A stretch of DNA of 64,000 nucleotides from a virus. The stretch is taken from positions 74,918 through 138,917 of the IMG/VR virus record IMGVR_UViG_3300029922_000017; one strand, given 5' to 3'. The translations under genes and the position numbers were made by a program. The notes below the pieces were generated by a model that worked only from the letters and a program-made list of their open reading frames with translations, did not search any database and was not told the DNA's origin. Below, piece after piece: positions 36,586 to 56,556 of this stretch (position 1 is its first letter; the number at the start of each line of letters is the position of its first letter).

Positions 36586-37800
36586 TCAAGGTCTTTTTGT
36601 GATTATCCATTTTTGGCAGGATTTATTATATCCTGTCTTTAGGCTACTCACTCCTGCCTTGGATAGATTATATTTTTTTAGAAATTCATTACCAGTTCCG
36701 GCAAATGTTTCTCTTGTGATTTTATGTTGGAATGTAAATATCCGACCATCATAAAATCCATTATCTGCTCCTGCCTGTTTTCCAATTTGTGCCAAACTCA
36801 TTTTCCTTCTGCTTTCTTCGGTGAATGTCTTTCCCGTTCTTCCGTGTGTATGTGTTTTATAATATGTTTTTAGTTTTTTACTTATATCGGTTCGTATATC
36901 GTCGGTATGCGTTTTACCATAATAATGATTTTTATCTCCCATTACACTTTCACGAGTGCCACGCATCTTTTCCTTAATCTCGTCTGTATGTTTTTTACCA
37001 TAATATCCATTATTTTTACCACTATGAGCAATTGACATCTTTCGTTTAGTTTCCTCGCTTATAATCAATTTCTGATTACTTTTTCTAACTAGATTATATC
37101 CGCCATCGTCAGCCATAGTTTTATATTTCTCAATATAATGGCATTCTTTTAATAATAAATCTTCTTCGGTGATATTGTATAATTCATCGACAAGTTCTAT
37201 TTTAAAGTTATCAATCCCATATTTAACAATAGAATTTCGTAATACCGACCTACCACGGTTACTATTTAAAGCGTCCCACTTATGCTCTTTCCACCTAGTT
37301 TCAATATCCCTAGTAGTAATACCTACATACTTCTTGTTATTTACTAGATTTGTTATTAGATATACTATTCCTTTTTCTATAAGCATCTCTTTTCCGCTTT
37401 CTTTCGGCTTCAATATTGTCGTAATAGTATTTTTGCTGGTAGGCTCGATTGTTGGAACGGATATCTTCGATGGTTCTGACTGGGTATATCCAGGCGTTTC
37501 GAAAATATTCCCAATTATAACCGTCCCATTTAAATCATGCTCCCCATATATATTTTCAATTATAGATTGATATGGCTTATTATCCCGAAGCGAAGTAAAA
37601 TAAAATGTATTAAATTCCAATTTATTATTGGACTGACCATCATGAGATATAACTGTTCTGGCTATTTTTCCAAATTGGACTATAAAAATATTATCTTCAT
37701 GATAGACGGATACTATATCTCCATCATAAATTTCTTTTCCGGTATTATCTTTTATACCGGCATATTGTTGGATTTTAGCTTGCTCATTCTCATCCATCAA
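36586..37800 (-). CDS. YopX domain fused to GIY-YIG/NUMOD3 endonuclease
   Basis: QYAGIKD.TGKEIYDGDI...IGNIFE, then IVYLITN..N.KKYVG.T, GYN, repeated YGKKHT.E. Confidence 0.8.
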   Translation of the reverse strand: MMDENEQAKIQQYAGIKDNTGKEIYDGDIVSVYHEDNIFIVQFGKIARTVISHDGQSNNKLEFNTFYFTSLRDNKPYQSIIENIYGEHDLNGTVIIGNIFETPGYTQSEPSKISVPTIEPTSKNTITTILKPKESGKEMLIEKGIVYLITNLVNNKKYVGITTRDIETRWKEHKWDALNSNRGRSVLRNSIVKYGIDNFKIELVDELYNITEEDLLLKECHYIEKYKTMADDGGYNLVRKSNQKLIISEETKRKMSIAHSGKNNGYYGKKHTDEIKEKMRGTRESVMGDKNHYYGKTHTDDIRTDISKKLKTYYKTHTHGRTGKTFTEESRRKMSLAQIGKQAGADNGFYDGRIFTFQHKITRETFAGTGNEFLKKYNLSKAGVSSLKTGYNKSCQKWIITKRP

Positions 37801-42615: not shown

Positions 42616-43053
42616 TCATAATTTTACAAACTCAAATTCTGAAATCGGTATTTTATAAAAGAACTCCCCTTTGAGGACAAATCTATTTCTCGACTCCTTA
42701 AGATGTTCATCTTCCATGTATTTTTTAATTTTTTTACCTTTGATTATTCCAATATGTGAATAATCTTCAGATAATATGATATAATCAGTCTTACCATCCA
42801 CGAAGAATTTCTTTTTACGCTCGGCAATATTTATATCAGAATAAGGAAAAATTTCCGATTTCCATACTAATCTATGTTCGACCTCTACGCTGTGTTTTTC
42901 ATCTTCCGATATTAAATCAACACTATATCGTGTCTTACCATCAACTAATTCAATGCCCAATTTGTCTTTATAATACTTTTTTACAACTTCACGACTCTGA
43001 GGGTCATGTGCGGCATGTAATTTCTTATCAAAGGCTTTATGTTTTCCAATCAT
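42616..43053 (-). CDS. PD-(D/E)XK-like nuclease-fold protein
   Basis: YSVDL...VEVE...ERKKK. Confidence 0.55.
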   Translation of the reverse strand: MIGKHKAFDKKLHAAHDPQSREVVKKYYKDKLGIELVDGKTRYSVDLISEDEKHSVEVEHRLVWKSEIFPYSDINIAERKKKFFVDGKTDYIILSEDYSHIGIIKGKKIKKYMEDEHLKESRNRFVLKGEFFYKIPISEFEFVKL

Positions 43054-43056
43054 AGT

Positions 43057-43602
43057 TTATATTATTTTGTTGTTTTTTAATAGACCGATTATTTTGTTTA
43101 CTATTTTATCTTTACCTTCGGGAGTGCCGTCAAATACTTCATACCCTTCATTATACTTATCAAGCAAATCTAAAATCTTGCCGTCTATTTCAATGGATTG
43201 TTCTTCATTATGCAATCTCCCATTTGGGTCATGTTTTCCTGCTCGTTTTAAGAATACATTATAATTCCACATCTTACTCATTTCTTCCATTGCTAATTTC
43301 TCAAATGTCTCTCGCCGTTCTTTATCATAAATAGGTTGTAACACTAAAGGACTATCTGTTATGATAACATCAACCTCTCCCAATAATCGATTAATACGGT
43401 GAAATTGATTTCCGAATAGATATATTTGGTCGTGGATAGAGTCCAGGTCTTTATTATATATTATATCTTTAGGGAATTCTAATGCCATTTCACAACTAAT
43501 ACCTTTAGTTTTCAAATCAAAGAATATACCTGCACATATAGTGCTTTTTCTCGAATTGGGACCTCCAAAACAGTTTATCACCAATGCGTTATTTGTTTGC
43601 AT
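43057..43602 (-). CDS. NadR/AAA_28-like P-loop kinase
   Basis: INCFGGPNSRKST (degenerate Walker A), DQIY, ITDSP, GR. Confidence 0.75.
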   Translation of the reverse strand: MQTNNALVINCFGGPNSRKSTICAGIFFDLKTKGISCEMALEFPKDIIYNKDLDSIHDQIYLFGNQFHRINRLLGEVDVIITDSPLVLQPIYDKERRETFEKLAMEEMSKMWNYNVFLKRAGKHDPNGRLHNEEQSIEIDGKILDLLDKYNEGYEVFDGTPEGKDKIVNKIIGLLKNNKII

Positions 43603-44131
43603 AAGTTACTACCTCTCGACATAAATTTATAAATTCTTCATTAGATAACGACTGTTTCGAAAAGTTTAAGTCACGATGAACCCACTGTATATTGTTAATG
43701 GTATACCCTTTCGTCGAGTCTATTCTATCAAGAGAGGCTGTATTTGATTTTGAGTATTCAAATCCTATATTCCTTCCCGACAAGGCACATCTTCTTTTTT
43801 GTTTAATATAAAGTTTCCATGCCTTTTCAATGGTTAATTTAAAAATTATTTCTCGGCTTTTCGCTCCTCGTATAACATTGTTCCAAAATGTCATTGATAT
43901 GTCTTCATGTCCTTTCCATTTAGGGCGTTTACGATATGGATGCCACACATCATAAGTTTGAACAACTAACCCATACATATTAAGATAATTAGACACCGAT
44001 TTTTCATTACATCCTACTTCACTTGCTATTTTATTTATCGTTTTTTTATTTATATAATGTTCAGTATGTAAGAACTCTTTAGTTAAAATTTTAGCTAGAC
44101 TGCCTCTTCTATTTTTCATTTTTGTTCTCAT
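43589..44131 (-). CDS. HNH-like homing endonuclease with N-terminal HTH
   Basis: IASEVGCNEKSV HTH; CALSG...ASLDRIDS.KGY..NNIQWVH..LN..K. Confidence 0.85.
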   Translation of the reverse strand: MRTKMKNRRGSLAKILTKEFLHTEHYINKKTINKIASEVGCNEKSVSNYLNMYGLVVQTYDVWHPYRKRPKWKGHEDISMTFWNNVIRGAKSREIIFKLTIEKAWKLYIKQKRRCALSGRNIGFEYSKSNTASLDRIDSTKGYTINNIQWVHRDLNFSKQSLSNEEFINLCREVVTYANK

Positions 44132-44132
44132 A

Positions 44133-44309
44133 TTATACACACCGGTTTGATTTTTGGTTATGTTTAGAAGAACAATCTTTTAATTTATGGTAATCTGACC
44201 TACGCTTTTGATTAATCATCTCCCGATTAAGTTGGTAATACTTATTAGCTTTAACCCTCTTAATTTCGAGAGTTTCCTCGTAGGTTCGATTATAAGATTT
44301 TCTTCCCAT
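44133..44309 (-). CDS. MGRK basic peptide (copy A, 58 aa)
   Basis: MGRKSYNRTYEE...YY..N...YH; TATTTATA 4 nt before ATG. Confidence 0.7.
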   Translation of the reverse strand: MGRKSYNRTYEETLEIKRVKANKYYQLNREMINQKRRSDYHKLKDCSSKHNQKSNRCV

Positions 44310-44349
44310 ATAATATAAATATAAGCGATAAATGAAAAACGATAGATTA

Positions 44350-44889
44350 TTAAATAGATTTAAATTCCTTGGCACATGTAGGACATAGAGTTTTTTCCCA
44401 TTTATTTTTATTTAACACCAACTTAACTTTATTAGTTGTGCCGCAGGTTTCGCACACATGGTTAGACATCTTCTCGTAAAATCTAATTATTTCTCGTGTC
44501 GTAGCATCACCACCCCACACTCCTTGAATTCGTAATTGTCCAAATTTAGATTTAATTATTCCTATAGATACCTGTTGAACTGGATTTTTAGTATAATAAT
44601 TAAATAATAATTTTTCATGTGCAAATTTAACTAGTGCTGGCCATTTTTTTTTAATCGACTCATCACTTACAATCGGCCAGATAAGGTCATACCAGCGTCT
44701 ATTCCACCAATAGTGAAATGTATTTAGATTGGCATCCTGAGTTGGATTATCAATGTATGATTGGAGGTCGTCCAACATGCTAGTGATTATTGATGCCCAC
44801 CCATCATCTACCTCGAAAGTCTTACTTCTTAAATCTGGAAGAATCTTGGGGTATTTTTTAAGTAGTTTATTGGTCAGTTTTTTATTCAT
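44350..44889 (-). CDS. conserved phage protein with C-terminal zinc ribbon
   Basis: DDGW, IKSKFGQLR, CETCG...LCPTC. Confidence 0.75.
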   Translation of the reverse strand: MNKKLTNKLLKKYPKILPDLRSKTFEVDDGWASIITSMLDDLQSYIDNPTQDANLNTFHYWWNRRWYDLIWPIVSDESIKKKWPALVKFAHEKLLFNYYTKNPVQQVSIGIIKSKFGQLRIQGVWGGDATTREIIRFYEKMSNHVCETCGTTNKVKLVLNKNKWEKTLCPTCAKEFKSI

Positions 44890-45063
44890 AATTCACTATA
44901 TATTTTATCGGCGATGGTTAATTCATCCGGTGTCAGTCTTCTATAAAATTTGATATAATCTAACATATAATCAGACGTGTAATCATTCTTCCAAGAGTCA
45001 ATATATTCATTTAGATGATTTAATTCCTCATCCATCTGTAATTCTACGTCTTGATATAACATG

Positions 45064-45351
45064 TTATTTCTTGTTAAGTGTCATATTTGGATAACATTTA
45101 TGACAGAGAAATATTTTTTTGTTCTTAATATCAAGTCCCAAATGTCCCTTACCCATACATTTCTTACAATTGGATTTGGGGGGATATGGCACTTGTGCTT
45201 TCAATTCTCCAAGTCCGATAAATGTTGGGGGGTGTATCTTCCCCGCCACTGTTGATTTTAATTCATAGGTTGGGGTAGCGGGTGTTTTATTAACCGGAGG
45301 TTGGGATGGAACGTATTCTCTAATTGGTTCGGTCATAATAGGTATAAACAA
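45064..45351 (-). CDS. small zinc-finger protein
   Basis: CKKCMGKG...CHKC. Confidence 0.55.
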   Translation of the reverse strand: MFIPIMTEPIREYVPSQPPVNKTPATPTYELKSTVAGKIHPPTFIGLGELKAQVPYPPKSNCKKCMGKGHLGLDIKNKKIFLCHKCYPNMTLNKK

Positions 45352-45730
45352 AATGTGCTGTTATATTGATATTATATAACAGCACACCGTGGAACTCAAC
45401 TTTTTATATTTTATTTTTTGTCAATTGGGTCGGTAAACAAAAAGTAGGGACATGCTTTTTGCTTCTTGGCCTTGACCAGCATCCACATAAAAGATACGAA
45501 TATCACAACTTGCTCCGAACCAGCAACCACAATCGACTTCATTATCTCATTAAACCTAACATCAATCTTTCCAATGATAGAGTCATATTCCTTTTTAGAA
45601 ATATTATCATCGGATAACTTCAAATATTCTTCTTTAGTAATTTTCATGTGTTCGAATATATCACATCTTATTGTGCATCATACTTAAACCGAACATATCA
45701 ATCAGTTTTTAGAGACATCTGTGATTTATT

Positions 45731-46372
45731 TTAATGGTGTCCTTCTTGTTTACGTGGTATTTTATCCATTAATTGTTTAATCTCATCAAACGAGACTGGA
45801 CGTTTCCAATAATCAAATCCAACATCTATAGTTTTCCCGTCTAATTTATAATTTTCTTTAGTTGAATGAATATGTCCGTGGATATGTATTCCGTTATGAG
45901 ACATACCATTCCAAGAAGATAGTGGATAATGACTAGCTACAGTCTTACTGCCATCAACCGAGAATTCTAGATAATTCCCAACATATATCAAATTTCTATA
46001 TCTTAGTGGATATACTTCTATATCTCGCTTACCATATATTGAATATATATGTTCTTCGTAATTTGACCACGTGCATGAATTATGATTCCCAAACAGCATA
46101 TACACCGATTGACAGTTAATTTGAGATAGAAAATTTTCAAATTGGTCGGATGAAGAATTAAGCATGAAATCTCCGAGATAAATCATTATATCGTCATACT
46201 TTACATTATCATTTATAGTCTTGATGATGTCGACGTTCATTTCACCGACTGAATTATACCCTCTCATTTTCCAAATAGGAATTGGCCATTTAGGATTATG
46301 GTTATAGTGAAAATCACTACTCAACCATACTTTACTTTCTTCGGTCTGTCTAAAATGTAATACTCTATTCAT
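45731..46372 (-). CDS. calcineurin-like metallophosphoesterase
   Basis: SDFH..H, LGD, GNH, SHYP, HGHIH, DVG. Confidence 0.9.
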   Translation of the reverse strand: MNRVLHFRQTEESKVWLSSDFHYNHNPKWPIPIWKMRGYNSVGEMNVDIIKTINDNVKYDDIMIYLGDFMLNSSSDQFENFLSQINCQSVYMLFGNHNSCTWSNYEEHIYSIYGKRDIEVYPLRYRNLIYVGNYLEFSVDGSKTVASHYPLSSWNGMSHNGIHIHGHIHSTKENYKLDGKTIDVGFDYWKRPVSFDEIKQLMDKIPRKQEGHH

Positions 46373-46694
46373 GATATCCGTTTCTATATGCTATATATTT
46401 TGTTTTTTCGCTATTCTTTTTAAATGGATTTTTATAGGGACGCTTTAATCTTTTATCATTGCTTCCCATATGATATGCTCCAATAATTTTTTCTGATTCT
46501 TTACTCATAAATTATTCCAAATAATCATCGTAAATTGTAATATGTATAAACCCATCACCATCTGTGTGACCAATGATAATACTATCACCACACCCATTTT
46601 TAAACGCTAACAACTCTTCGAGAGAATTGATTTCAATTGTCTTTTCATACTTACAGTCCGATGCTTTTTCAATTTTAAATTTCATAACTATTTT

Positions 46695-47018
46695 TTAAAT
46701 GTGACTTCCACCAAATATCTTACTAAATACTCCGCCCTTGCCAAATATCTCTTCGAACAATGCGGGGTTATTTAACTCTACATCGAGCAGTTTATTTTTT
46801 CGAGTTGGTTTAGTAATATTCAATCGCAATTCACAATCGGGACATGTTAGCCTGATATATGTCTCATACATCTGGATAAAATGTGGAAAATCAGCCCGTT
46901 CCAATTTAAATATACATTCGCAATTTTTACATCTAAACTCACGGTCTTCCCACCAATATTTTTCAATTGTAGTTTTTGTTGGCTTGCTATAGGGAATGCC
47001 AGATTTAATAATTTTCAT
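46695..47018 (-). CDS. zinc-ribbon hypothetical protein
   Basis: CKNCEC...CPDC. Confidence 0.6.
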   Translation of the reverse strand: MKIIKSGIPYSKPTKTTIEKYWWEDREFRCKNCECIFKLERADFPHFIQMYETYIRLTCPDCELRLNITKPTRKNKLLDVELNNPALFEEIFGKGGVFSKIFGGSHI

Positions 47019-47338
47019 TTTTCAATATGTTTATAGGTTCCGTTTTTCAACTGCTTCCATTTCCGTTTTTTGTTAATTTTCAACTTCTGGCTGGCAAACT
47101 CAATCAAATCTTCCAACGAATGTCCTTTTCGCCATGCTGCATCCAGCAACAGCAACGTGCAGTCTGCCCATTCCATCTTATCATCGGGATTATCTAACAA
47201 CTCCTGAACTTCATCTTTTAAATGAAGTAATGGATACTTACAGGGTCTATCTTCCGGCGACCCAAACGCCTTACCAGAAAATTCATTACGGGCTTTTAAG
47301 AAAGCATTTATTTTTAGTATGTTGTTAATTTGAATCAT
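47015..47338 (-). CDS. dATP/dGTP pyrophosphohydrolase-like (DUF550/MazG fold)
   Basis: PLLHLKDEVQE, EWADC.LLLLDA, KL.IN..RKW. Confidence 0.75.
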   Translation of the reverse strand: MIQINNILKINAFLKARNEFSGKAFGSPEDRPCKYPLLHLKDEVQELLDNPDDKMEWADCTLLLLDAAWRKGHSLEDLIEFASQKLKINKKRKWKQLKNGTYKHIEK

Positions 47339-47643
47339 AAGTGGAGTATATCAATCTCAAACTAAAAGTCAAGGACTAATCATTTTAAAATATTCGCTAG
47401 GAATAATTTCATTTTGATTAAATCCATAAAAATGGTCAATCAACAAGCCTTCGGGATGTAGTTTGCCAGTTATTATTAAACCTTTTGGATAAAAGGAATT
47501 ACCACCATAACCGTGGTAATTCCATTTTTTTATTAGTCTTACTTTAATCATTTTTCAAATTATATCATACACATATAAAAAGTCAATAAAATATTTTCGG
47601 AGTTTTTTCGGTGTTTTATTATTCTCGATGATATTTATAATAT

Positions 47644-47787
47644 ATGGGAAGAAAAAAGTTATATATCACCGAGGAAGATAAGATGACCGCCGCCCGAAAA
47701 TGGCGAATGGACTATTATTGGAGAAACCAGAAAAAAGAACAAAAACGTAATTTAAAAAATTATCATGAAAGAAAAAAGCCAACTTGA
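47644..47787 (+). CDS. MGRK basic peptide (copy B, 47 aa; not in ORF track)
   Basis: MGRKKLYITEEDKMTAARKWRMDYYWRNQKKEQKRNLKNYHERKKPT; TATTTATA 4 nt before ATG. Confidence 0.75.
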   Translation: MGRKKLYITEEDKMTAARKWRMDYYWRNQKKEQKRNLKNYHERKKPT

Positions 47788-48547
47788 ATATTCTCGTATT
47801 TGTCCCGAATGTAATGCTAAAATAGTATTAAAAAATAAGAATTCTTGGTGGGCAAATAGAAACAGTAAAAAATCATGTAGAAGATGTGTGATTGGATATT
47901 CTCTTGAAGAGGAGAAATTTTTAATCGATAATTATTCTAAATTAGGACGGAAAGAATGTTCTAGGCAATTGAATAGAACGGAATTTTCTATCGGAGTTAA
48001 GACAAGTAAACTCAGACTTGTTATGACACCCCAACCCAAAGACCCAATTAATAATAAAATATGTGTGAGATGTGATTTGGAATTATCAAAAGATAGATTT
48101 GGAGTTACCAATCGAAACAAAGATAAACATAGTAATATGTGTAAATCATGTTCGCAATATGATAGGCGTCGGTCAGATAAACTTGAAAACAAGCGAAAAT
48201 ATGATGCAATCTACAAAACTAAAAAGAAAACTTGTCCTATATTTAAACTACGCAAAATAGTAAAAAAACGAATTACACGAGCAATGAAACTAAAAAGTAT
48301 AAAGAAAAGACATTCTATAATTAAATTGTTGGGATGTTCCATTATAGACTTGCAACAGCACTTAAAATCACAATTTAAATATGGAATGTCTTGGGATAAT
48401 CATGGCTTTAAAGGTTGGCATATCGACCATATAATTCCACTTTCATCGGCCAAAACACAAGAAGAAATGGAAAGGCTATGTCATTATACAAATCTCCAGC
48501 CTCTTTGGTGGTATGAGAATTTATCAAAAAAAGATAAGATATTATAA
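47765..48547 (+). CDS. HNH homing endonuclease with zinc ribbons
   Basis: CPEC, CVRC...CKSC, MSWDNHG..WHIDHIIP...HYTNLQPLW..ENLSK. Confidence 0.9.
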   Translation: MKEKSQLEYSRICPECNAKIVLKNKNSWWANRNSKKSCRRCVIGYSLEEEKFLIDNYSKLGRKECSRQLNRTEFSIGVKTSKLRLVMTPQPKDPINNKICVRCDLELSKDRFGVTNRNKDKHSNMCKSCSQYDRRRSDKLENKRKYDAIYKTKKKTCPIFKLRKIVKKRITRAMKLKSIKKRHSIIKLLGCSIIDLQQHLKSQFKYGMSWDNHGFKGWHIDHIIPLSSAKTQEEMERLCHYTNLQPLWWYENLSKKDKIL

Positions 48548-48919
48548 TCCCTTAAAATTGCATAGAACCATATGGAAACCCCAAAAATTCTTATCTACAA
48601 TTTTCATCATATCTTTGATTTCCTGCGCCCGATTACATTGAACATTCATCCAAACATTTTTACGGGTAATTACAATGTCTTCTGGATTATATTCAAAATC
48701 GATAATTTCACCGTCCAAATGACGAATGGGATTTACATCGAAATTTCCATGAATTGCTGGCAGAGCAATTGAAATGTGGCAACCATGCGCCGGTAATTGT
48801 GATGGTATCGTATTCCAGTGCGCCACATGAAATAGTTTCTGATAATAACGGCAAATATCGTAAGAACATATTATTCTTACGCCATTCTTTATCTGTAGAT
48901 AGCCATTACTTTTATACAC
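48542..48919 (-). CDS. 2H-phosphoesterase-like protein
   Basis: Two His motifs, HISI and FHMV, ~65 aa apart. Confidence 0.55.
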   Translation of the reverse strand: MYKSNGYLQIKNGVRIICSYDICRYYQKLFHVAHWNTIPSQLPAHGCHISIALPAIHGNFDVNPIRHLDGEIIDFEYNPEDIVITRKNVWMNVQCNRAQEIKDMMKIVDKNFWGFHMVLCNFKGL

Positions 48920-48962
48920 GTCACCAGTATATACAAATACAACATCAAGTCAAGAAATTAAA

Positions 48963-49208
48963 TGAATGAAGGATATAATCGCCTTTCTGTAATTTAACTC
49001 CGACATATATCTCATTATTTCTAATGGTCGTATGCTACTAACGACTGCTTCAACCTTCGCATTATCGGGAAACATTACCCTAGCGACTTTAGAATTGCAG
49101 ATACCTTGAGGTAATAACGGGCTATTAACCCTTCCTCGGCTGTTTTTCTGTGACGAATTTCCTCTATTATAGGGCTTTACCTATAACAGCGTCGGAGTCC
49201 TTCATTCA
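48963..49208 (-). ncRNA. rnpB: RNase P RNA, minimal (reduced specificity domain)
   Basis: P1 UGAAUGAAGGA/UCCUUCAUUCA, P2 CUCCGAC/GUCGGAG, P3 hairpin, CR-I GAGGAAAUUCGUC pairing with CR-V ACAGAAAGGCGAUUAU (P4 with bulged U), P18 CAUUA-GAAA-UAAUG, CR-IV AGAUAUAUG. Confidence 0.85.
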
Positions 49209-49220
49209 AATTGAATAATA

Positions 49221-49442
49221 TCACACTTCCTTAAACAAGTCAAGGAATGTTTGTTCGGCTGTATCTCGGTTATTTAATGGATGTTCGTCTGTCCAATCAA
49301 TTTCAACTTTTTTAGTATCTCTTACCCGAACATTTAAATATCTATTATTTTCAATTGACTCTATAACTTGTTTTAAGTTATGATGACGTTCAAAATCAAT
49401 AACCTGAACTACCATTTTATATACATTTACTTTATTATTCAT
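49221..49442 (-). CDS. hypothetical phage protein
   Basis: WTDEHPLN motif; stops 12 nt before the RNase P RNA. Confidence 0.7.
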   Translation of the reverse strand: MNNKVNVYKMVVQVIDFERHHNLKQVIESIENNRYLNVRVRDTKKVEIDWTDEHPLNNRDTAEQTFLDLFKEV

Positions 49443-49570
49443 ATTTTAATCGTCCCATTCTTTGGAGCATCGGTTACATTTCCATCTATGTGTCCAATTT
49501 GAGTATGCGGTTATCACAGTCTTATCTGAGTGGAAACACCATCTAAAATTAAAAAATGATAGCAATTTTC

Positions 49571-49963
49571 TCATAATCCATCCCTCACATTGAAATAACT
49601 TGGTTCAGTCGTAATTTGTTCGGTATAATACTTATCAATTGCTTGAGTGGCAAATTTAATGGCTTCTCTTTTTAACATCCAACCAGCTTCAAATGTTTTT
49701 CCATATTTCTCTTTATAATTAAAGAGTCGTTCTTTAATCATAACAACATCCATTTCCTTTTCGGCGATGGATAACGACCATTGCGACCCTCTGGCTCGAA
49801 AATAGTAATATTCTCCAGTCATTAATTGACCCTCAATCTGCACCGGACATTGTCCGTTTGGCATTTCCAAGTCGTATGGGTTTTGAAATGTCCATGCCCA
49901 CCAATTTAAAAATCGGTCAAAATAATAATTGTATATAAATCTATAATAAAGTTTTTTAAGCAT
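49571..49963 (-). CDS. hypothetical phage protein
   Basis: CPVQIEG...YYFRARG..W...AGWM. Confidence 0.7.
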   Translation of the reverse strand: MLKKLYYRFIYNYYFDRFLNWWAWTFQNPYDLEMPNGQCPVQIEGQLMTGEYYYFRARGSQWSLSIAEKEMDVVMIKERLFNYKEKYGKTFEAGWMLKREAIKFATQAIDKYYTEQITTEPSYFNVRDGL

Positions 49964-50208
49964 ATTATTTATTCTCTACGAAAAAAGTATGCCCCGCATT
50001 TCCACTATGACCAAACCCATACTTTCTAACTCGTTTAATTTTTCCTTCTTTTAAAAGTTGGTGAACTTGTTTTGTAACATCAATAGAACGTGCATGATTA
50101 TCCCAATATTTACGACTCGTTGTTGGGTCTGGTTTATGCCCATACATGACAATTCTATTTTCATCCTTGATGGGAAGATTTGACATGACCAATGTTCGTA
50201 GTTCCGTA

Positions 50209-50883
50209 TTATTCGCCATATTTTTTAATTCCTTCTTCACCATATCTATTTCTAAGGGCGGCAAAATATTCATTAGTCTTAATTTTACAAGACCACACTT
50301 TGCCACAATAATCACCACGAGTTTGAGTCCCTTTAAACATCATGCCTTCAAATAAAGGATATTTATTATCGGTTAATTTATGAAATTCCGGAGTATATAC
50401 ACCAGTTCTAACATCCTCAATTAATTTATCATTCATATTACCCATATACAATACTGGAGGAATTTTAACTAATGATTGGAACGTCTCGATAAAATCTAAT
50501 GGAGTATAGAAATAATGATTTTTATGTCCGACCAATACATCAAATATGATTAATTCTTTGGGGTCTCCTTCAACATGAGTTCCAGCAAAAGATTTTGCAC
50601 CCAGAAATTCTCCAAACACCACAATTTCACGTTGATTGCGTAATTCTTTATCTTTTCTAAAGAATTTGGTTAATTCATCTTGATAATCTCTCTTAAATAT
50701 AGTAACAGCTTCTCCAAGAAATTGATGGGACTCGTCTATTAATTCACGGCGGGAGCCATATAGATTAAATCCCTGTTTAAGAGTATATTTGCACCGGAAG
50801 TTGGAACCGTCTAGTTTGACAAATCCAATTCCATGCCCTCTAGGAGCCTTACTTGAATTTTGAATGGATGGATATTCTGTCAT
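50209..50883 (-). CDS. RNA ligase (Rnl2-like nucleotidyltransferase domain)
   Basis: KLDGSN, FGEF.G, FDV, EG.M.K, KIKT. Confidence 0.8.
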   Translation of the reverse strand: MTEYPSIQNSSKAPRGHGIGFVKLDGSNFRCKYTLKQGFNLYGSRRELIDESHQFLGEAVTIFKRDYQDELTKFFRKDKELRNQREIVVFGEFLGAKSFAGTHVEGDPKELIIFDVLVGHKNHYFYTPLDFIETFQSLVKIPPVLYMGNMNDKLIEDVRTGVYTPEFHKLTDNKYPLFEGMMFKGTQTRGDYCGKVWSCKIKTNEYFAALRNRYGEEGIKKYGE

Positions 50884-50884
50884 A

Positions 50885-51310
50885 TTACTTATTATTTCTA
50901 TTTAATCTAACATAATTCTCCTGCCAATAGGGAGACTCAACATCGTTGTTGATAATTGAAAAACTGGTAGTGGCTGGCTCAATAAATTTATCAACAAATC
51001 TTTCTCGGATAAACATATAAAGTCGTTTGGCATCGTCAACATCTTTTTTTGCCAATTCCATTCTATTCTTCATCTGTTCGAGTTTAAAGGTGCTATAAGG
51101 TTCGGGATGCCCAAATCCTCCCAGTGAGGCTTCATCATATACGTCTCGACTCTTTTTATTCGCCGCCAGCGCACCCTCATATGTTCCTTTCATCATAGCA
51201 TAATGCTCAATTGCGGATTGCTGTTGAAATACGAAGAAATCAAGAATAACTCTGGCACTTGCCGCACTATCTGATTTACTCATTTCTACGTTGACAGTAT
51301 GAAATATCAT
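50885..51310 (-). CDS. hypothetical protein
   Basis: 141 aa, consensus promoter. Confidence 0.65.
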   Translation of the reverse strand: MIFHTVNVEMSKSDSAASARVILDFFVFQQQSAIEHYAMMKGTYEGALAANKKSRDVYDEASLGGFGHPEPYSTFKLEQMKNRMELAKKDVDDAKRLYMFIRERFVDKFIEPATTSFSIINNDVESPYWQENYVRLNRNNK

Positions 51311-51345
51311 ATTTGAGAGTATATCTGAGTTATAATAAAAGTCAA

Positions 51346-51804
51346 CTACTTTTGAATAAATCTTTTAATCTTAGCTTTCTGCCACCACTTTAACACTTTA
51401 CCACAATATTTTGGTTCTTTGCCACTGGCAGACTCTGGTATTACATTTTTAACCTTCAATGCATCCTCCACTTTTTGGAAATCCATATATCCAATTCGAA
51501 TAAATGAAGTTGGCTCTTCCAACCATCCCTCATTTGTTATATTAATATCAAAAATACCATCGGGTTGCTTGGCTTTCACTTTATTTTTAGTCCGATAAAT
51601 TGCAATCGTTTCTCCGAGATGATATGGAATGGCGGTAATACATTGCTCAATGGTAGGAGAAACACATATTCTAGCACCTAAAGGCTCGGCTGGCGTCCTA
51701 TTATGTGATTCATTATTATCAAAATCACGTGGGATTAAGTGTTCTATTTCATCTTCTAATGTAGTCGAAATATGATACCAGTATCTTTTTTTATTATATA
51801 ACAT
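51346..51804 (-). CDS. hypothetical protein with possible ADP-ribosyltransferase-like motifs
   Basis: WYHIS...PR...RICVSPTI..C..AI...T.EGW. Confidence 0.5.
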   Translation of the reverse strand: MLYNKKRYWYHISTTLEDEIEHLIPRDFDNNESHNRTPAEPLGARICVSPTIEQCITAIPYHLGETIAIYRTKNKVKAKQPDGIFDINITNEGWLEEPTSFIRIGYMDFQKVEDALKVKNVIPESASGKEPKYCGKVLKWWQKAKIKRFIQK

Positions 51805-51810
51805 AATATT

Positions 51811-52065
51811 TTAACCCGCATTAAACGATGCCAATACACAACCCGAAACCGAACCTTCTTTAGCAGTTCCAATTAATTCAACGTCAAGTGAAATCGGGGA
51901 ATTTACCCATGCCGACCTACAATTAGTCCAAATCATTGGATTGCCGGAGGGGTCAATGTTAATAGCACTTTTTTCATCTTCGGCTATTACTACAATAGAG
52001 TCATAATCGTCATAACTCCACCTATCATTTCTCGTTAATTTGTATATATTCACGTGTTCTCCCAT
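51811..52065 (-). CDS. conserved small phage protein
   Basis: YDDYDSIVVIAEDE..A...LASFNAG. Confidence 0.7.
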   Translation of the reverse strand: MGEHVNIYKLTRNDRWSYDDYDSIVVIAEDEKSAINIDPSGNPMIWTNCRSAWVNSPISLDVELIGTAKEGSVSGCVLASFNAG

Positions 52066-53027
52066 CCTTTATTCTTCTCCCACTGTTCTTGGCTACAGGT
52101 ATCTTGTCGACTATTAAACCCATTTTCACCAGACTTGAGGCGGCGGATTTCTTCTCTAAGTTCCGCTTTAGTGCGGGCGTCTTTTTTTGGTTTTGCTTTA
52201 TATAAGATAATATTTATCATAATTTTTTAAGTTCGGAAGTTATATCAATTCTACCAGACGTTCCAGTTGTTCCGCCTGATATTTGGGTAATTTCAATTGA
52301 GGATATTTAACTGAGTCGGAATACATATCATTAATTCCGTCAATGATATATTCCAGCTTATCCAATGCCTGTAAATTGGATTTAGATTTTAATTTAGTGC
52401 GGAATGACTCTAATGAGTCGGCTTGCCATTTATTAATATCCTTTAATGAGGTTCTTTTCATAGTTTTTTAATACGTTCCACCTTCAGCACAATTTTTGTG
52501 ATAAGTTTCTATTGCCTGTTGTTTCTTGGTTAATTTCGTTGGTCTTTCCACGCCACAAATTGGACAATATTTCCATTTATCCGTCTGGACTATTCCAAAT
52601 CCATATTTATATGACCAACCATCACAAGCATCAATATCCATCCCGTCCACTTCACAGGCGGAACGACTCCAATATTTTAAATGAGAACACCAGATTTTAT
52701 TATTTTTCATTTTTATTAATAGCACTACAAATCTCCACTATTCGATTTGCCGCATTTTTTCGCTGTTCTTTACTACCATAAGTAGCACAGCAAGCACACC
52801 CAACACTCGACATTGGATATTTACAAGTGCATCTCGGATGACATGGCTTATCGGCAATTAAACATGGACATTTCATGTCATTTAAAGATAATTGAAATCT
52901 CACTCCACCTTGAATTGCTACATTATATGCAGCTTCATGACTGGTGGCTGGAAATGACTCCATAACAGAGTCATATATCTTTTTCTCTTCTCTGGTCAAC
53001 GAATTATATGTATATTCATTCTTCATA

Positions 53028-54971
53028 TTATTTCAATAAGTCTAAGAGTTCGATGGCATCTATGATTTTGGTTCCGTATTTCTTTGCCTTTTCCATCTTC
53101 GAACTTGAACTATTTTTATCATTCGTAACGAGATAAGTTACATTTTTTGCATAAGTTTCCGTGAAGGCATTCCCAGAACTGGTAATTTTGTCATGGTAAT
53201 ACTGTTTCGGCATATCAAATTTACCAGTTAAACATGCTAAAAATGCACCATCTTTTAAATTAGATTTTTTACTCTCCGTAATAGAAACTCCATTCTTGAT
53301 GAATTTAAGAATATAATCTTTCTTATGGAGCAGTTCCTTACAAATTTCAATCGCAGCGTTTGGAAGGGACGACTCATTCGCATATTTGGTCAGTGTAGTT
53401 CCATCTAACCATTGAGTTAACGAGTCCATTTTTCCTTTTAACGATTCTTGAACAATGGCCACACGACGTTTTCCTAGATTTCCAATGCCAAGACTTCCAA
53501 GAAATTCATTGAGTGGGAGTTTTCTTTTCTGTTCGATATTAGCAATGATTTTCTCGGCTCTTTTTTCGCCCAACCTAGTTTTTTCGCTTAACATCAAATC
53601 CGCCAATTCATCTTCTTTATCTTTAAGAGTATATAAATCTGCGGCACTCTGAATAAGTCCACTTGATAGTAACGCTTCAATTACGGAAGTCCCAATTACT
53701 TGAATATCCAATGATTTTACATACTTTTCAATTTTCCCTAACCGCTGTGCCGGACAATCTTCATTAACACAATAAATTGCTACGCTATCAACGCCGGAAA
53801 TATTGGACTTCTTTTCTACCTTACCACCACAACAAGGACATTTAGTGGGAGTAATGATAGGAATACGATTGCTAGGACGCTTGATTACTTTAGTTATACA
53901 AGGGATGATGTCCCCCGATTTTGTAAGAATAATCTCATCATTAATACATAATTCCAAATTTTCAATATTATCAATATTATATAGACTTGCAAATTCAACA
54001 GTAGTTCCTCCGATTTGCGTTGGAACTACTTGAGCCACAGGGGTTAATGCCCCGGAATGGCCTGTTTCGAATTGAACTTTTAATAGAGTAGTCTTCACTT
54101 CTTCGGGTTCGAATTTAATAGCCACGGCTCCACGAGGAGCGTGTTCCGAACTTCCCAATGATAATTGTTTCTTGATATCATTAATAAAGATTGTAATTCC
54201 ATCTATTTGGAAATTCAACGTGCTCCTAATTTTTGCAATTTCAAGATACCAGTTCCACACTTCAGCCGCAGTTCCTACAAATGACTGAACAGTATTAAAT
54301 CCAAGTTCTTTTAGATTCTTATGCATTTCCGATTGAGTATCTCCGATAATATTTCCATTTAAATCATACAACCGAAAAGCATAGAAACTCAACCATTCGG
54401 ACTGACTACCATCCTTCCGGCGCATGATACCGACTGGTAGATTTCTTGGGTTAGAAGTCTTATCGGGGTCAATAGAATTCCAATCATCCATATTTAATGC
54501 TACTTCACCTCGCACAAACCCACTGAAAGTAGACTTGTTTGGTAGACCTTTAAACGATATAGCATTAGGAGTAATCGTTTCCCCATATAAACCATCCCCA
54601 CGAGTCACCGCAGAAATAAGTTGTCCGTTTCTATATTCCAAACTTACACTGCCGCCATCAATTTTTAATGAAGCTTCAAGTAATTCAGTTGAAAAGTTAT
54701 TCTTCTTGAGAGTATTTTTAATCCACGAATTCCATTCGTCAATATTGGTTGCTTTATCGAGCGAATCCATTTTTATACTATGTGCTTGTTTCTCTAAAAT
54801 ATTGTCCCGAATAGATGCACCGACTTTTTTAAGTCTTTTATCGTTTGGGTTGAGTTGTTTAAGCTCTTTGATTAAAGAATCATACACAGTATCATCCATA
54901 ATTGGATTTCCAATAGTATAATATGCATAATCCGCAGCGTCTATTTTCTTCTGGATGTCAAGTAATGTCAT
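53028..54971 (-). CDS. ligA: NAD-dependent DNA ligase
   Basis: AYY...DD.VYD, KIDG, TRGDG..GE, RGE, SGDIIP, Cys4 zinc finger, HhH repeats, BRCT; start moved to ATG 54971. Confidence 0.95.
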   Translation of the reverse strand: MTLLDIQKKIDAADYAYYTIGNPIMDDTVYDSLIKELKQLNPNDKRLKKVGASIRDNILEKQAHSIKMDSLDKATNIDEWNSWIKNTLKKNNFSTELLEASLKIDGGSVSLEYRNGQLISAVTRGDGLYGETITPNAISFKGLPNKSTFSGFVRGEVALNMDDWNSIDPDKTSNPRNLPVGIMRRKDGSQSEWLSFYAFRLYDLNGNIIGDTQSEMHKNLKELGFNTVQSFVGTAAEVWNWYLEIAKIRSTLNFQIDGITIFINDIKKQLSLGSSEHAPRGAVAIKFEPEEVKTTLLKVQFETGHSGALTPVAQVVPTQIGGTTVEFASLYNIDNIENLELCINDEIILTKSGDIIPCITKVIKRPSNRIPIITPTKCPCCGGKVEKKSNISGVDSVAIYCVNEDCPAQRLGKIEKYVKSLDIQVIGTSVIEALLSSGLIQSAADLYTLKDKEDELADLMLSEKTRLGEKRAEKIIANIEQKRKLPLNEFLGSLGIGNLGKRRVAIVQESLKGKMDSLTQWLDGTTLTKYANESSLPNAAIEICKELLHKKDYILKFIKNGVSITESKKSNLKDGAFLACLTGKFDMPKQYYHDKITSSGNAFTETYAKNVTYLVTNDKNSSSSKMEKAKKYGTKIIDAIELLDLLK

Positions 54972-55075
54972 AGTGGTAAGAGTATATCGGATTATCACTT
55001 AAAGTCAAGCAATTTTATTTTCAATTGTTGTCACTTTTTTGTCATTTATTTAATTCGCAATGCTATTTATATCAT

Positions 55076-56080
55076 ATGGATACAACAACGTCAACAAATA
55101 AAGAGAAAGAAGTTACATTATGGGAAGAAAACGAATACACCACACTACCGAAGAGCAACGTATTGCCGTCAACGAGCGGAGAATGCGATATTATAACCGC
55201 AACAAAAGGATTGAGAGGAAACGAGCACTTGATAGATATTATAAGAAAAAGGACATTAACAACTGATACATCTGGAATATATAAAATTACCAATAAAATA
55301 AATGGGAATTATTATATAGGGAAATCCACTAAAATCGGAAGACGCTGGTGTGAACATCGCAGATTTCTGAAACAAAATAGACATGATACTCCACATTTAC
55401 AAAACGCACGGAATAAATATGGTAGAGATAATTTTAAATTTGAAATAATTGAGCGGGAAATACCAATAAATGAGTTAAAACCTACCGAGCAAAAATACCT
55501 AGATATTGCTAAATTAGAAAAAGATAAGTGTTATAATACAAACTTTATATCTGACGGAGGAATGATTGGCGAATTACATCCCAACTATAAATCAATACCC
55601 ATAAATATATTGGATGAATCCAAGGATATTTGGTTATATAGACCATATTTAGAATTTGTTAATTATATGAATTCTAAAAAATATGGTCCAATAGTTCAAC
55701 AACGAGTTATTAAAAATTTCCAATCTGATACTACATTAATAAAAATAAAGGATGAAACATATCGTAAAAACATGTCTATATCAACATTAGGAATCAGAAA
55801 TGGTAATTGGGGAAATCACCAATCGGAAGCGACCAAGGAAAAAGTTAGACTACGAAGAAAAGAATATAAAGTAACGGATGAAACTAGGTCGAATATGGCA
55901 ATGGCTGGATGGGACAAGACAATTTACAAGTTTGAAAATCGAACTACTGAGGAGACTTTTATTGGAATAAAACATGATTTTTATACTAAATACAAACTAA
56001 ATCCTTCAAGTATAAGTGCAATAATATACGGAAAATTACCACATCACAAACAGTGGATTTTCCTCGGAGAAGTAAAATAA
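55076..56080 (+). CDS. GIY-YIG homing endonuclease with NUMOD3
   Basis: SGIYKITN..NGNYYIGKS, R...H, E...EQ.YL, YN; TATTTATA 4 nt before ATG 55076. Confidence 0.9.
   Translation: MDTTTSTNKEKEVTLWEENEYTTLPKSNVLPSTSGECDIITATKGLRGNEHLIDIIRKRTLTTDTSGIYKITNKINGNYYIGKSTKIGRRWCEHRRFLKQNRHDTPHLQNARNKYGRDNFKFEIIEREIPINELKPTEQKYLDIAKLEKDKCYNTNFISDGGMIGELHPNYKSIPINILDESKDIWLYRPYLEFVNYMNSKKYGPIVQQRVIKNFQSDTTLIKIKDETYRKNMSISTLGIRNGNWGNHQSEATKEKVRLRRKEYKVTDETRSNMAMAGWDKTIYKFENRTTEETFIGIKHDFYTKYKLNPSSISAIIYGKLPHHKQWIFLGEVK
55120..55266 (+). CDS. MGRK basic peptide (copy C, 48 aa, nested in another frame of the GIY-YIG ORF)
   Basis: MGRKRIHHTTEEQRIAVNERRMRYYNRNKRIERKRALDRYYKKKDINN. Confidence 0.7.
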   Translation: MGRKRIHHTTEEQRIAVNERRMRYYNRNKRIERKRALDRYYKKKDINN

Positions 56081-56556
56081 TTTCAATAGAAGATTGAAAT
56101 AGTCAAATTTACAATGGGAGGAACCACGGCTGGCGTTGCGGAATAAACCGTGCTTGAGCCAGTAGTTGATATTACGGGCGGCACAGTTGCACTTGATTGT
56201 GATTGGAGAATTGTGATTGGAGTTACAGTAGCAAGAAAAGTATTAACTGCTAATGCCAGTGGAGTAGTTCCGTCAGTATCCAATACATATGTATTAGAAA
56301 TTGGATTTTTTGTGCCGCTAAATATTTGTAATTTCATATTTTAATTAAAATTTCGCTTTCGATTGGTATTTGACATCCCATATAAATTGCATCTCCAAAA
56401 TACTGGAACAATTCCCACAGTTGGGCTTCGGAATAACCATCGTCATCCGTCTTAAAAGATATCGGACATAATTTATATACGTTATGTGTTAAATTTAAAT
56501 TTGCTATGTATTTCGCACCATCTTTGGTTATTTTAAATTTTACACTATCATTCAAA

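Follow-up and report, generated by a model that had tools for sequence, protein, structure and literature searches.

Free-standing homing endonucleases are among the commonest mobile genes of phages, and the ways in which harm to their carriers is restrained are known mainly from T4. Here we describe a 64,000-nt stretch of viral DNA (the window), the final 64 kb of the 138,917-bp contig IMGVR_UViG_3300029922_000017 (positions 74,918 to 138,917; CheckV completeness 39%), in which three homing-endonuclease genes are each paired with a gene for a small basic protein beginning with the residues MGRK, the MGRK peptide. An initial annotation of the window had proposed that these pairs are copies of a portable module; as judged by sequence comparison, MGRK peptides indeed form a previously unnamed family of basic proteins of ~47 residues carried by many uncultured phages. 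The peptide appears to be a real, translated small protein and may be an optional control module of free-standing homing-endonuclease cassettes. Our preferred explanation, which we put a little short of probable, is that it is a single-helix DNA-binding autoregulator of the nuclease cassette, by analogy with the C proteins of restriction-modification systems.

C proteins are helix-turn-helix dimers of ~80 residues that bind inverted repeats. In their systems a small regulator gene lies just upstream of, and overlaps, the endonuclease gene, as the MGRK gene does (PMC2997769 and PMC2175313, each in part); C stop codons fall within about 20 nt of the R start codons, and C.PvuII transcripts are leaderless (PMC2997769, in part). 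Repeated operator boxes stand just upstream, where MGRK cassettes carry locus-specific paired words that are putative operators. Transcripts start at the regulator start codon, as those of MGRK genes would judging from the spacing between a promoter-like box and the ATG and from the lack of a Shine-Dalgarno signal, and the purpose of limiting or delaying a dangerous nuclease would also be shared, as far as the portions of these two sources drawn on here describe it. The MGRK peptide is nevertheless no member of the C-protein family, having ~47 residues, a single predicted helix, no Pfam match and no helix-turn-helix or other Xre/HTH_3-type fold, with sites that are direct rather than inverted repeats at a spacing of 11–15 bp. 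Its partners differ as well, being homing endonucleases of lytic phages that lack an accompanying methylase, and the gene overlap can span the whole small open reading frame (ORF), unlike that in C-protein operons.

In T4 the nuclease genes segC, segF, mobA and mobC start 11–24 bp inside the preceding ORF and have no ribosome-binding site of their own, an overlap proposed to hold nuclease translation low via reinitiation or scanning (PMC2988022, in part). Like the MGRK cassettes, these genes sit between phage genes and are often antisense to them; however, the upstream ORF in T4 is whichever resident gene is there, whereas the MGRK peptides are a single conserved family moving along with the nuclease, the box and the repeats. 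The homing-endonuclease gene of I-TevI is repressed via an operator overlapping its own promoter (PMC2988022, in part). There the nuclease represses its gene through a DNA-binding domain of its own, at an operator that mimics its homing site, whereas MGRK repeats go with a separate peptide gene and not with the nuclease type. IS1/IS3-type elements also have a small basic DNA-binding regulator (InsA/OrfA) whose gene precedes that of the enzyme and overlaps it out of frame, the shared stretch containing A-runs, and they require a -1 frameshift to make the enzyme; the nuclease of an MGRK cassette initiates at a start codon of its own, and the relation between the two frames can vary. PeSLs are promoter/stem-loop motifs that encode no protein. 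In T4-type phages PeSL cassettes, too, are short portable promoter units beside variable genes and are thought to mediate shuffling (PMC2839356 and PMC4122927, each in part), but the MGRK module also has a gene for a conserved protein, and its specific words come in pairs. A surface-level search of the full-text literature found no description of such a nuclease partner protein.

All three annotated peptide ORFs of the window (c1 to c3) were recovered, and their alignment is invariant at 11 columns (M1, G2, R3, K4, T9, E11, Y24, Y25, N28, Y40 and K44), supporting their homology. The partner genes do encode nucleases: those of c1 (ORF 43589-44140(-) as used for PHROG matching) and c2 are HNH-type by their PHROG matches, the Pfam HNH match itself being weak (E 0.34), and that of c3 (ORF 55025-56080(+)) is a GIY-YIG enzyme matching PF01541 (E 2.3e-7, 31.5 bits vs. 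a cut-off of 22.6) and phrog_314 (8e-23). In each pair the nuclease lies in the +1 frame of the peptide, as had been noted, and cassettes 2 and 3 are antisense to their neighbors while cassette 1 is co-oriented. The box TATTTATA and a pair of direct repeats are also present in every cassette, but the box does not head all three in the same sense, since that of cassette 3 precedes an ATG in the nuclease frame (55076) and not the peptide ATG. We scored repeats as the best 10-nt self-repeat at a period of 10–16 (maximum 10). The features are as follows (window positions; repeats read on the cassette strand):

44326..44344 (-), cassette 1 direct repeat, TATCG twice at period 14; weak, self-repeat score 8/10, with words that are not unique in the genome
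44314..44321 (-), cassette 1 TATTTATA box, TATTTA followed after 6 nt by the peptide ATG, the geometry found in 72/111 loci
44133..44309 (-), MGRK peptide c1, 58 residues, profile match E 6e-27
43589..44131 (-), HNH-type endonuclease in the +1 frame, its ATG 1 nt past the peptide stop (TAA-T-ATG); phrog_3322 5e-19, phrog_1035 4e-14
47594..47611 (+), cassette 2 direct repeat, TTTTCGG(A/T)G twice at period 11; self-repeat score 9/10
47632..47639 (+), cassette 2 TATTTATA box, TATTTA followed after 6 nt by the peptide ATG; proposed -10 of a leaderless mRNA
47644..47787 (+), MGRK peptide c2, 47 residues; a single helix predicted at residues 10-44
47765..48547 (+), HNH/endonuclease VII-like homing endonuclease in the +1 frame, its ATG, formed by codon Y40 plus G, at nt +121 of the peptide ORF, 23-nt overlap; phrog_1035 1.3e-15
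55028..55044 (+), cassette 3 direct repeat, TTGTCA(C/T) twice at period 11; self-repeat score 8/10
55064..55071 (+), cassette 3 TATTTATA box, with the nuclease-frame ATG 55076 4 nt further on
55076..56080 (+), GIY-YIG homing endonuclease from the box-proximal ATG (presumed start), its first ~66 codons spanning the whole peptide ORF in the +1 frame
55120..55266 (+), MGRK peptide c3, 48 residues, inside the nuclease ORF, with the purine-rich GAGAAAGAAG just before it

A profile search of 1.84 billion cluster representatives identified 239 with E-values of 1e-3 or less, mostly of 45–60 residues (137 among the 150 matches listed are under 100 residues), and a second database gave 65 matches, all "hypothetical" or unnamed and none with a Pfam domain. 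The family consensus is MGRKKKYxTxEExxxAxxxxxMxYYxxNKExIxKKxLxRYY, in which M1, G2, R3, Y25 and Y40 are invariant across 60 sequences. The MGR codons show synonymous variants among loci, and divergence is highest at codon position 3 (0.50), followed by positions 1 (0.38) and 2 (0.31), a ranking that fits selection on the protein. With a 60-row alignment as input, AlphaFold2 predicts one helix, at residues 10-44, behind a short N-terminal tail (predicted local distance difference test, pLDDT, 90.5); prediction of a peptide homodimer gave no support for one. None of the three window peptides matched a Pfam family at E ≤ 1 or belonged to a PHROG (best E-values 0.38, 0.062 and 0.12, to three different families without a known function), and the ESM Atlas held no named relative. 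A tblastn search with four family members found nothing meaningful in GenBank phages, although the low-complexity filter of BLAST may hide a family so rich in K, R and E, and a limited scan of 185,579 species genomes for the pattern MGRKKKY[LNQ] gave 44 pattern matches, none of them confirmed. Thirteen of the 150 listed matches are at least 100 residues long; among the 12 inspected, two look like over-extended start calls, and the others are low-complexity proteins with no Pfam domain at the motif, eukaryotic (fungal-like) as judged by eye rather than by a taxonomy tool. Long, fungal-looking sequences (P0042, P0086, P0098, P0099, P0106, P0128, P0129 and P0138) carry an N-terminal MGRP.LY.T.EE...A.R....YY..N, sometimes twice; the motif may be much older or more widespread than phages.

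When the profile built from the three peptides was run over all six frames of the contig (2184 stop-to-stop segments; genome positions below are those of the contig), four additional copies were identified, making seven in total:

c4, genome 19692-19835, followed by a zinc-finger/endonuclease gene pair overlapped by ATGA
c5, an orphan of 64 residues, 8 nt past the stop of a homing-endonuclease gene
c6, genome 56976-57473, fused in frame to an unknown 120-residue domain
c7, window 37337-37534 (-), a decayed copy (profile E 1e-4), with GIY-YIG at genome 112034-112291

In c7, ATGGGACGG (encoding MGR) runs immediately into TTATAA (a stop) and the peptide-like frame resumes one base off, while the overlapping +1-frame GIY-YIG ORF is open for 420 residues (window 37117-37534, minus strand); this nuclease frame extends far upstream, as though fused to a preceding gene.

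The initial annotation had called for a profile survey that records the downstream gene and its frame. Three scans of viral contigs gave 161 loci, picked by peptide similarity alone, and a profile pass gave 175 peptide matches; after removal of one match without a start codon and merging of near-duplicates (≥90% peptide identity with ≥85% identity over the upstream 40 nt), 115 non-redundant viral loci remained, which together with six copies from our own genome made 121 loci. Nucleases predominate among the partners: 92 of the 105 overlapping ORFs from viral loci are endonuclease-like, 90 being joined by BlastP (with the overprinted part excluded) to proteins individually called endonucleases and two more carrying Pfam HNH. 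Pfam assigns GIY-YIG to 45 of the 105 and NUMOD3 to 40, along with HNH, HNH_3, HNH_5, TnsA-like, endonuclease I, DUF723 and DUF4379, so that the nucleases partnered span GIY-YIG, HNH, endonuclease VII-like, TnsA-like/PD-(D/E)XK and DUF723/DUF4379 types. A portable, unnamed module common to unrelated nuclease families, as originally proposed, is thus what these loci contain. The pairing is not confined to nucleases, however, as nine further ORFs are DNA methylases or DnaB helicases, all behind a long form of the peptide (59–62 residues) in an apparent replication operon; the remaining four have no assigned identity. Downstream of the closest viral relative of c1 (L081 3001-3880) there is a +1 ORF with a 29-nt overlap and no nuclease match, whose N-terminus is reminiscent of TnpB-type proteins.

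In 102/121 loci the peptide stop is preceded by the first ATG of a +1-frame ORF of at least 80 residues; six loci have instead an ATGA overlap with a next gene in the +2 frame, and 13 have neither arrangement, namely c1, whose genes are adjacent, two loci at contig ends, two fused in frame, and orphans. The initial annotation had listed +1 frameshifting among the possibilities, but the +1 regularity is explained by the composition of the peptide gene and by conserved start codons of the nucleases themselves. The +2 frame of this K/E/R/Y-rich ORF contains a mean of 4.8 stops in 45 codons, and an overlapping ORF must therefore be in +1. In 31/121 loci, c2 included, the nuclease ATG stands at nt +121, where it arises from the conserved Tyr40 codon plus a following G, and GIY-YIG enzymes begin there with their canonical N-terminus MKxSGIYKI. 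In addition, the +1 frame is free of stops over the first 45 peptide codons in 52/121 loci vs. 16.5 expected from synonymous resampling, so the nuclease is truly read through the peptide ORF in the other frame and selection avoids stops; in many of these loci, cassette 3 among them, the +1 ORF begins 14–170 nt upstream of the peptide ATG.

These data bear directly on the idea, in our view very unlikely, that the peptide serves as an N-terminal DNA-binding helix of the nuclease, joined to it by a +1 frameshift or by transcriptional slippage. Besides the +1 relation at 102/121 loci, it could draw on A-runs in the two-frame windows (AGAAAAAAG in c2 and AAGAAAAAG in c3) and on two natural in-frame fusions, L124 3001-3669 (to a DUF4379/DUF723-type nuclease) and L154 3001-3342 (to a zinc-ribbon fragment). 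The A-runs, though, encode the conserved YYKKK/ERKK tail of the peptide, and the bias to +1 is forced by the stops in +2. The enzymes have their own conserved ATG; the six ATGA loci in +2, the in-frame fusions and the loci with adjacent or spaced genes (c1 and c4 among them) are cases that frameshifting cannot explain, and it is not needed. The features of programmed frameshifting (an enzyme without its own start, one fixed frame, a conserved slippery site) were not found, nor were any fused nuclease forms among longer database proteins at E ≤ 1e-3, although this last point is weak evidence.

The overlap could alternatively be all that matters. If the peptide ORF were only a translational leader, ribosomes crossing the nuclease start would give coupling or occlusion and a low nuclease yield, and the peptide product would have no function; the nuclease ATGs that lie 8–50 nt before the peptide stop without a Shine-Dalgarno sequence fit this, and so does the reduced reinitiation proposed for the overlapping T4 genes named above (PMC2988022, in part). 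We consider this explanation improbable: hundreds of clusters preserve the amino-acid sequence and show coding-type substitutions, orphan and fused copies exist (c5, c6, L002), and in about half of the loci the nuclease ORF begins upstream of the peptide, making coupling from peptide to nuclease impossible there. The pvuIIC and pvuIIR genes, moreover, overlap without coupling according to the portion of PMC2997769 cited here. Tight linkage and overlap are likewise what toxin-antitoxin pairs display, and the rare in-frame fusions suggest that the two proteins tolerate being close together, both of which could point to an antitoxin-like inhibitor that binds the nuclease. Against this, one conserved helix of 45 residues would need to interact with four or more unrelated nuclease folds as well as a methylase and a helicase, both partners are basic DNA binders, and at least seven nuclease genes of this same genome have no MGRK peptide; there is little chance, in our view, that the peptide is such an inhibitor.

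Upstream of the coding region the cassettes have a conserved cis architecture. The motif TA[TC][TAG]TA (mostly TATTTA) followed after 5–7 nt by an ATG was found in 72/111 loci vs. 80/2220 shuffled sequences; the ATG is that of the peptide in 45 loci, an upstream ATG in the +1/nuclease frame in 27, and in another frame in one. In the window as a whole TATTTATA is not enriched (20 found vs. 16.9 expected), but TATTTA occurs 5–8 nt before the ATG in 13/127 long ORFs vs. 15/2000 random ATGs. No enrichment of a Shine-Dalgarno signal was found at the starts of this phage's long ORFs (7/85 vs. a 7% background), and based on this and on a spacing between box and ATG that would suit a -10 element and a transcript beginning at that ATG, we infer that the cassette mRNAs are probably leaderless. 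Nor is the box specific to the peptide: 20 ORF starts (≥50 residues) in the genome carry it, and six of the ten tested belong to endonuclease genes without an MGRK gene, so it marks nuclease cassettes in general. Many ORFs of this genome (e.g., at genome positions 14557, 26914, 28081, 32488, 33334 and 35610) have TATA[AC]T or TATTTA 5–8 nt before the ATG, those of the TATTTA class being mostly homing-endonuclease genes, and this suggests that leaderless mRNAs are widespread in this phage.

The direct repeats, on the other hand, are linked to the peptide gene. Repeat scores of at least 9/10 were found in 52/100 loci vs. 90/1500 cross-locus pairs and 31/1000 shuffles, the excess within loci indicating that the two words change together between cassettes. 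Within our genome c1, c2 and c3 score 8, 9 and 8, whereas the six peptide-less nuclease genes with a box score 6, 6, 6, 6, 7 and 6; c4 carries two exact copies of a 10-mer at period 22 (but scores only 7 on the period 10–16 measure), and the operon in which c5 follows its nuclease gene scores 9, with CTAC words like those of c4, a similar peptide. Thus, within this genome, repeats occur only with a peptide gene. The words of c2 to c4 are also fairly private, with 2/2 occurrences of the c4 word in the 139-kb genome lying at its own promoter, 2/3 matches to the c2 word TTCGG[AT]GTT at its own cassette and 2/4 for the c3 word TTGTCA[CT]TT. Among the 52 loci with clear repeats, words resemble each other more where residues 17-24 of the peptide are alike (partial coefficient 0.85; p 0.004 by permutation), a relation seen with none of the other four segments of the peptide (p 0.07–0.42). 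For instance, locus L031 has a peptide similar to that of c2 and the same class of word, and relatives of c3 with ..RRMRYYN.. peptides likewise carry GTCAC words.

These patterns are difficult to reconcile with a more general role in homing, in which the peptide would be a nucleic-acid binder that aids the outcome of cleavage (end protection, recombination or host shut-off) and not a regulator. Such an accessory factor would pair with any nuclease fold, as the peptide does, and the strongly basic, predicted single helix and the presence of the long subfamily in replication modules beside DnaB and methylase genes would suit it. The N-terminus of the peptide is weakly AT-hook-like: the peptides match no AT-hook or bZIP-like profile, but a long relative has a sub-threshold AT_hook match (E 0.008, 16.4 vs. 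a cut-off of 17.4 bits), and an Atlas neighbor cluster at 0.86 offers a lead only. A general binder leaves unexplained, however, the cassette-specific paired words, their restriction to peptide-bearing cassettes and the tracking of residues 17-24, and seven diverged paralogs in one genome would be unexpected for it; we give this explanation only a minor chance.

Of the functions offered in the initial annotation (autorepressor, nuclease inhibitor, translational attenuator, frameshifted fusion), it is consequently the autorepressor binding the repeats that gains support, from the repeat scores, the residue 17-24 tracking and the link to the peptide gene, while the frameshift fusion loses it. 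Under the autoregulator explanation, two copies of a cassette-specific word would lie over the -35 and spacer region, followed by the TATTTA box and, 5–7 nt on, the ATG of a leaderless mRNA. In some cassettes the first ATG would be that of the peptide, and the nuclease would start within the peptide ORF at +121; in others it would be that of the nuclease, whose ORF would enclose the peptide ORF. The peptide, a putative DNA binder, would contact both words of its own cassette with a basic AT-hook-like tail and one long basic helix, and would feed back on its promoter. The out-of-frame overlap would tie the genes together and favor their co-inheritance and, possibly through translational coupling, would hold nuclease translation low relative to that of the peptide.

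Several observations weigh against this autoregulator. For a protein that would have to recognize a specific sequence, a single helix of 47 residues is small. The sigma70 -10 hexamer has a T at position 6 that is missing from TATTTA, and a simple sigma70 scan called no forward promoter at the cassette boxes. The cassette 1 repeat is the weakest of the three, and such words are common in the genome; the control within the genome is small (five cassettes vs. six); and as the repeats lie less than 60 nt from the gene, the covariation of word and peptide is not cleanly separable from common descent. The copy c6 is fused to an unrelated domain, and the long 59–62-residue subfamily lies inside an operon before methylase or helicase genes with neither box nor repeats, and so must do something other than autoregulate a cassette.

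If the observations are nevertheless taken jointly, we can speculate, with rather more doubt than attaches to autoregulation as such, that MGRK peptides are a new class of minimal sequence-specific binders, in which a GRKK minor-groove tail reads a T-run, the helix reads the adjacent 5-bp word and residues 17-24 constitute the recognition code. Each pair of peptide and word would then be a private feedback switch on a leaderless promoter, the homing-endonuclease counterpart of a C protein, and divergence of the words would insulate the paralogous cassettes of one jumbo phage from each other. A peptide that reads its own paired words would be among the smallest specific DNA binders known, and the cassettes would supply natural matched pairs of protein and site for decoding, as well as a ready set of orthogonal small regulators. 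Quite apart from this, our results point to an unnamed but widespread partner protein that several unrelated nuclease folds share, together with a conserved expression unit, in a setting where gene callers miss real genes, i.e., ORFs of 47 residues, ORFs embedded in another frame and probably leaderless starts without a Shine-Dalgarno signal.

The edges of the cassettes carry signals of their own. A promoter scan identified two near-consensus sigma70-like promoters that point outward:

47559..47586 (-), at the 5' edge of cassette 2, TTGACT-16-TATAAT, 11/12, with TG
54981..55008 (-), at the 5' edge of cassette 3, toward a ligase gene, TTGACT-16-TATACT, 10/12

That of cassette 2 would start transcription almost exactly at the ATG at 47551, and a reverse-strand TTGACA-like hexamer was seen by eye at the same relative place in many viral loci. 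These promoters may restart transcription of the flanking antisense genes or of the interrupted operon. The element AAAGTCAA, considered as a forward-strand signal of the cassettes, was dropped, as it makes a better -35 for a promoter that faces outward on the opposite strand. In cassette 3 the complement of the box, TATAAA, together with CGTCAA (55089-55094) can also be read as a reverse TTGACG-17-TATAAA promoter, a reading of ours that the promoter scan did not flag.

A megablast search of the cassette region against GenBank phages gave no match, leaving the contig without a close relative there, and one contig protein has distant matches in huge uncultured phages. One distant relative (L112 3001-4260/L162) has an MGRK and GIY-YIG cassette at the site where the window has MGRK and HNH, each adjoining a homolog of the same 125-residue gene (48542-48919; 35% identity), and this presence of different nuclease cassettes at one site speaks for mobility or reuse of the site. 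An Rfam scan of 43000-56500 found nothing at E ≤ 1, and the leader RNAs of c2 and c3 fold no more stably than shuffled sequences (z -0.26, +1.07 and +0.51). The c1 peptide mRNA (44165-44309, minus strand), in contrast, is strongly folded (-38.3 vs. -22.9 kcal/mol for shuffles, z -4.1), its start region pairing with the 3' part of the ORF; as only c1 is co-oriented with its neighbors, this fold may block translation on read-through transcripts. Finally, a hairpin with an 11-bp stem and T-runs on both strands, terminator-like in both directions, lies at 47495-47523, within a doubtful 60-residue ORF (47369-47551) just past the outward promoter of cassette 2.

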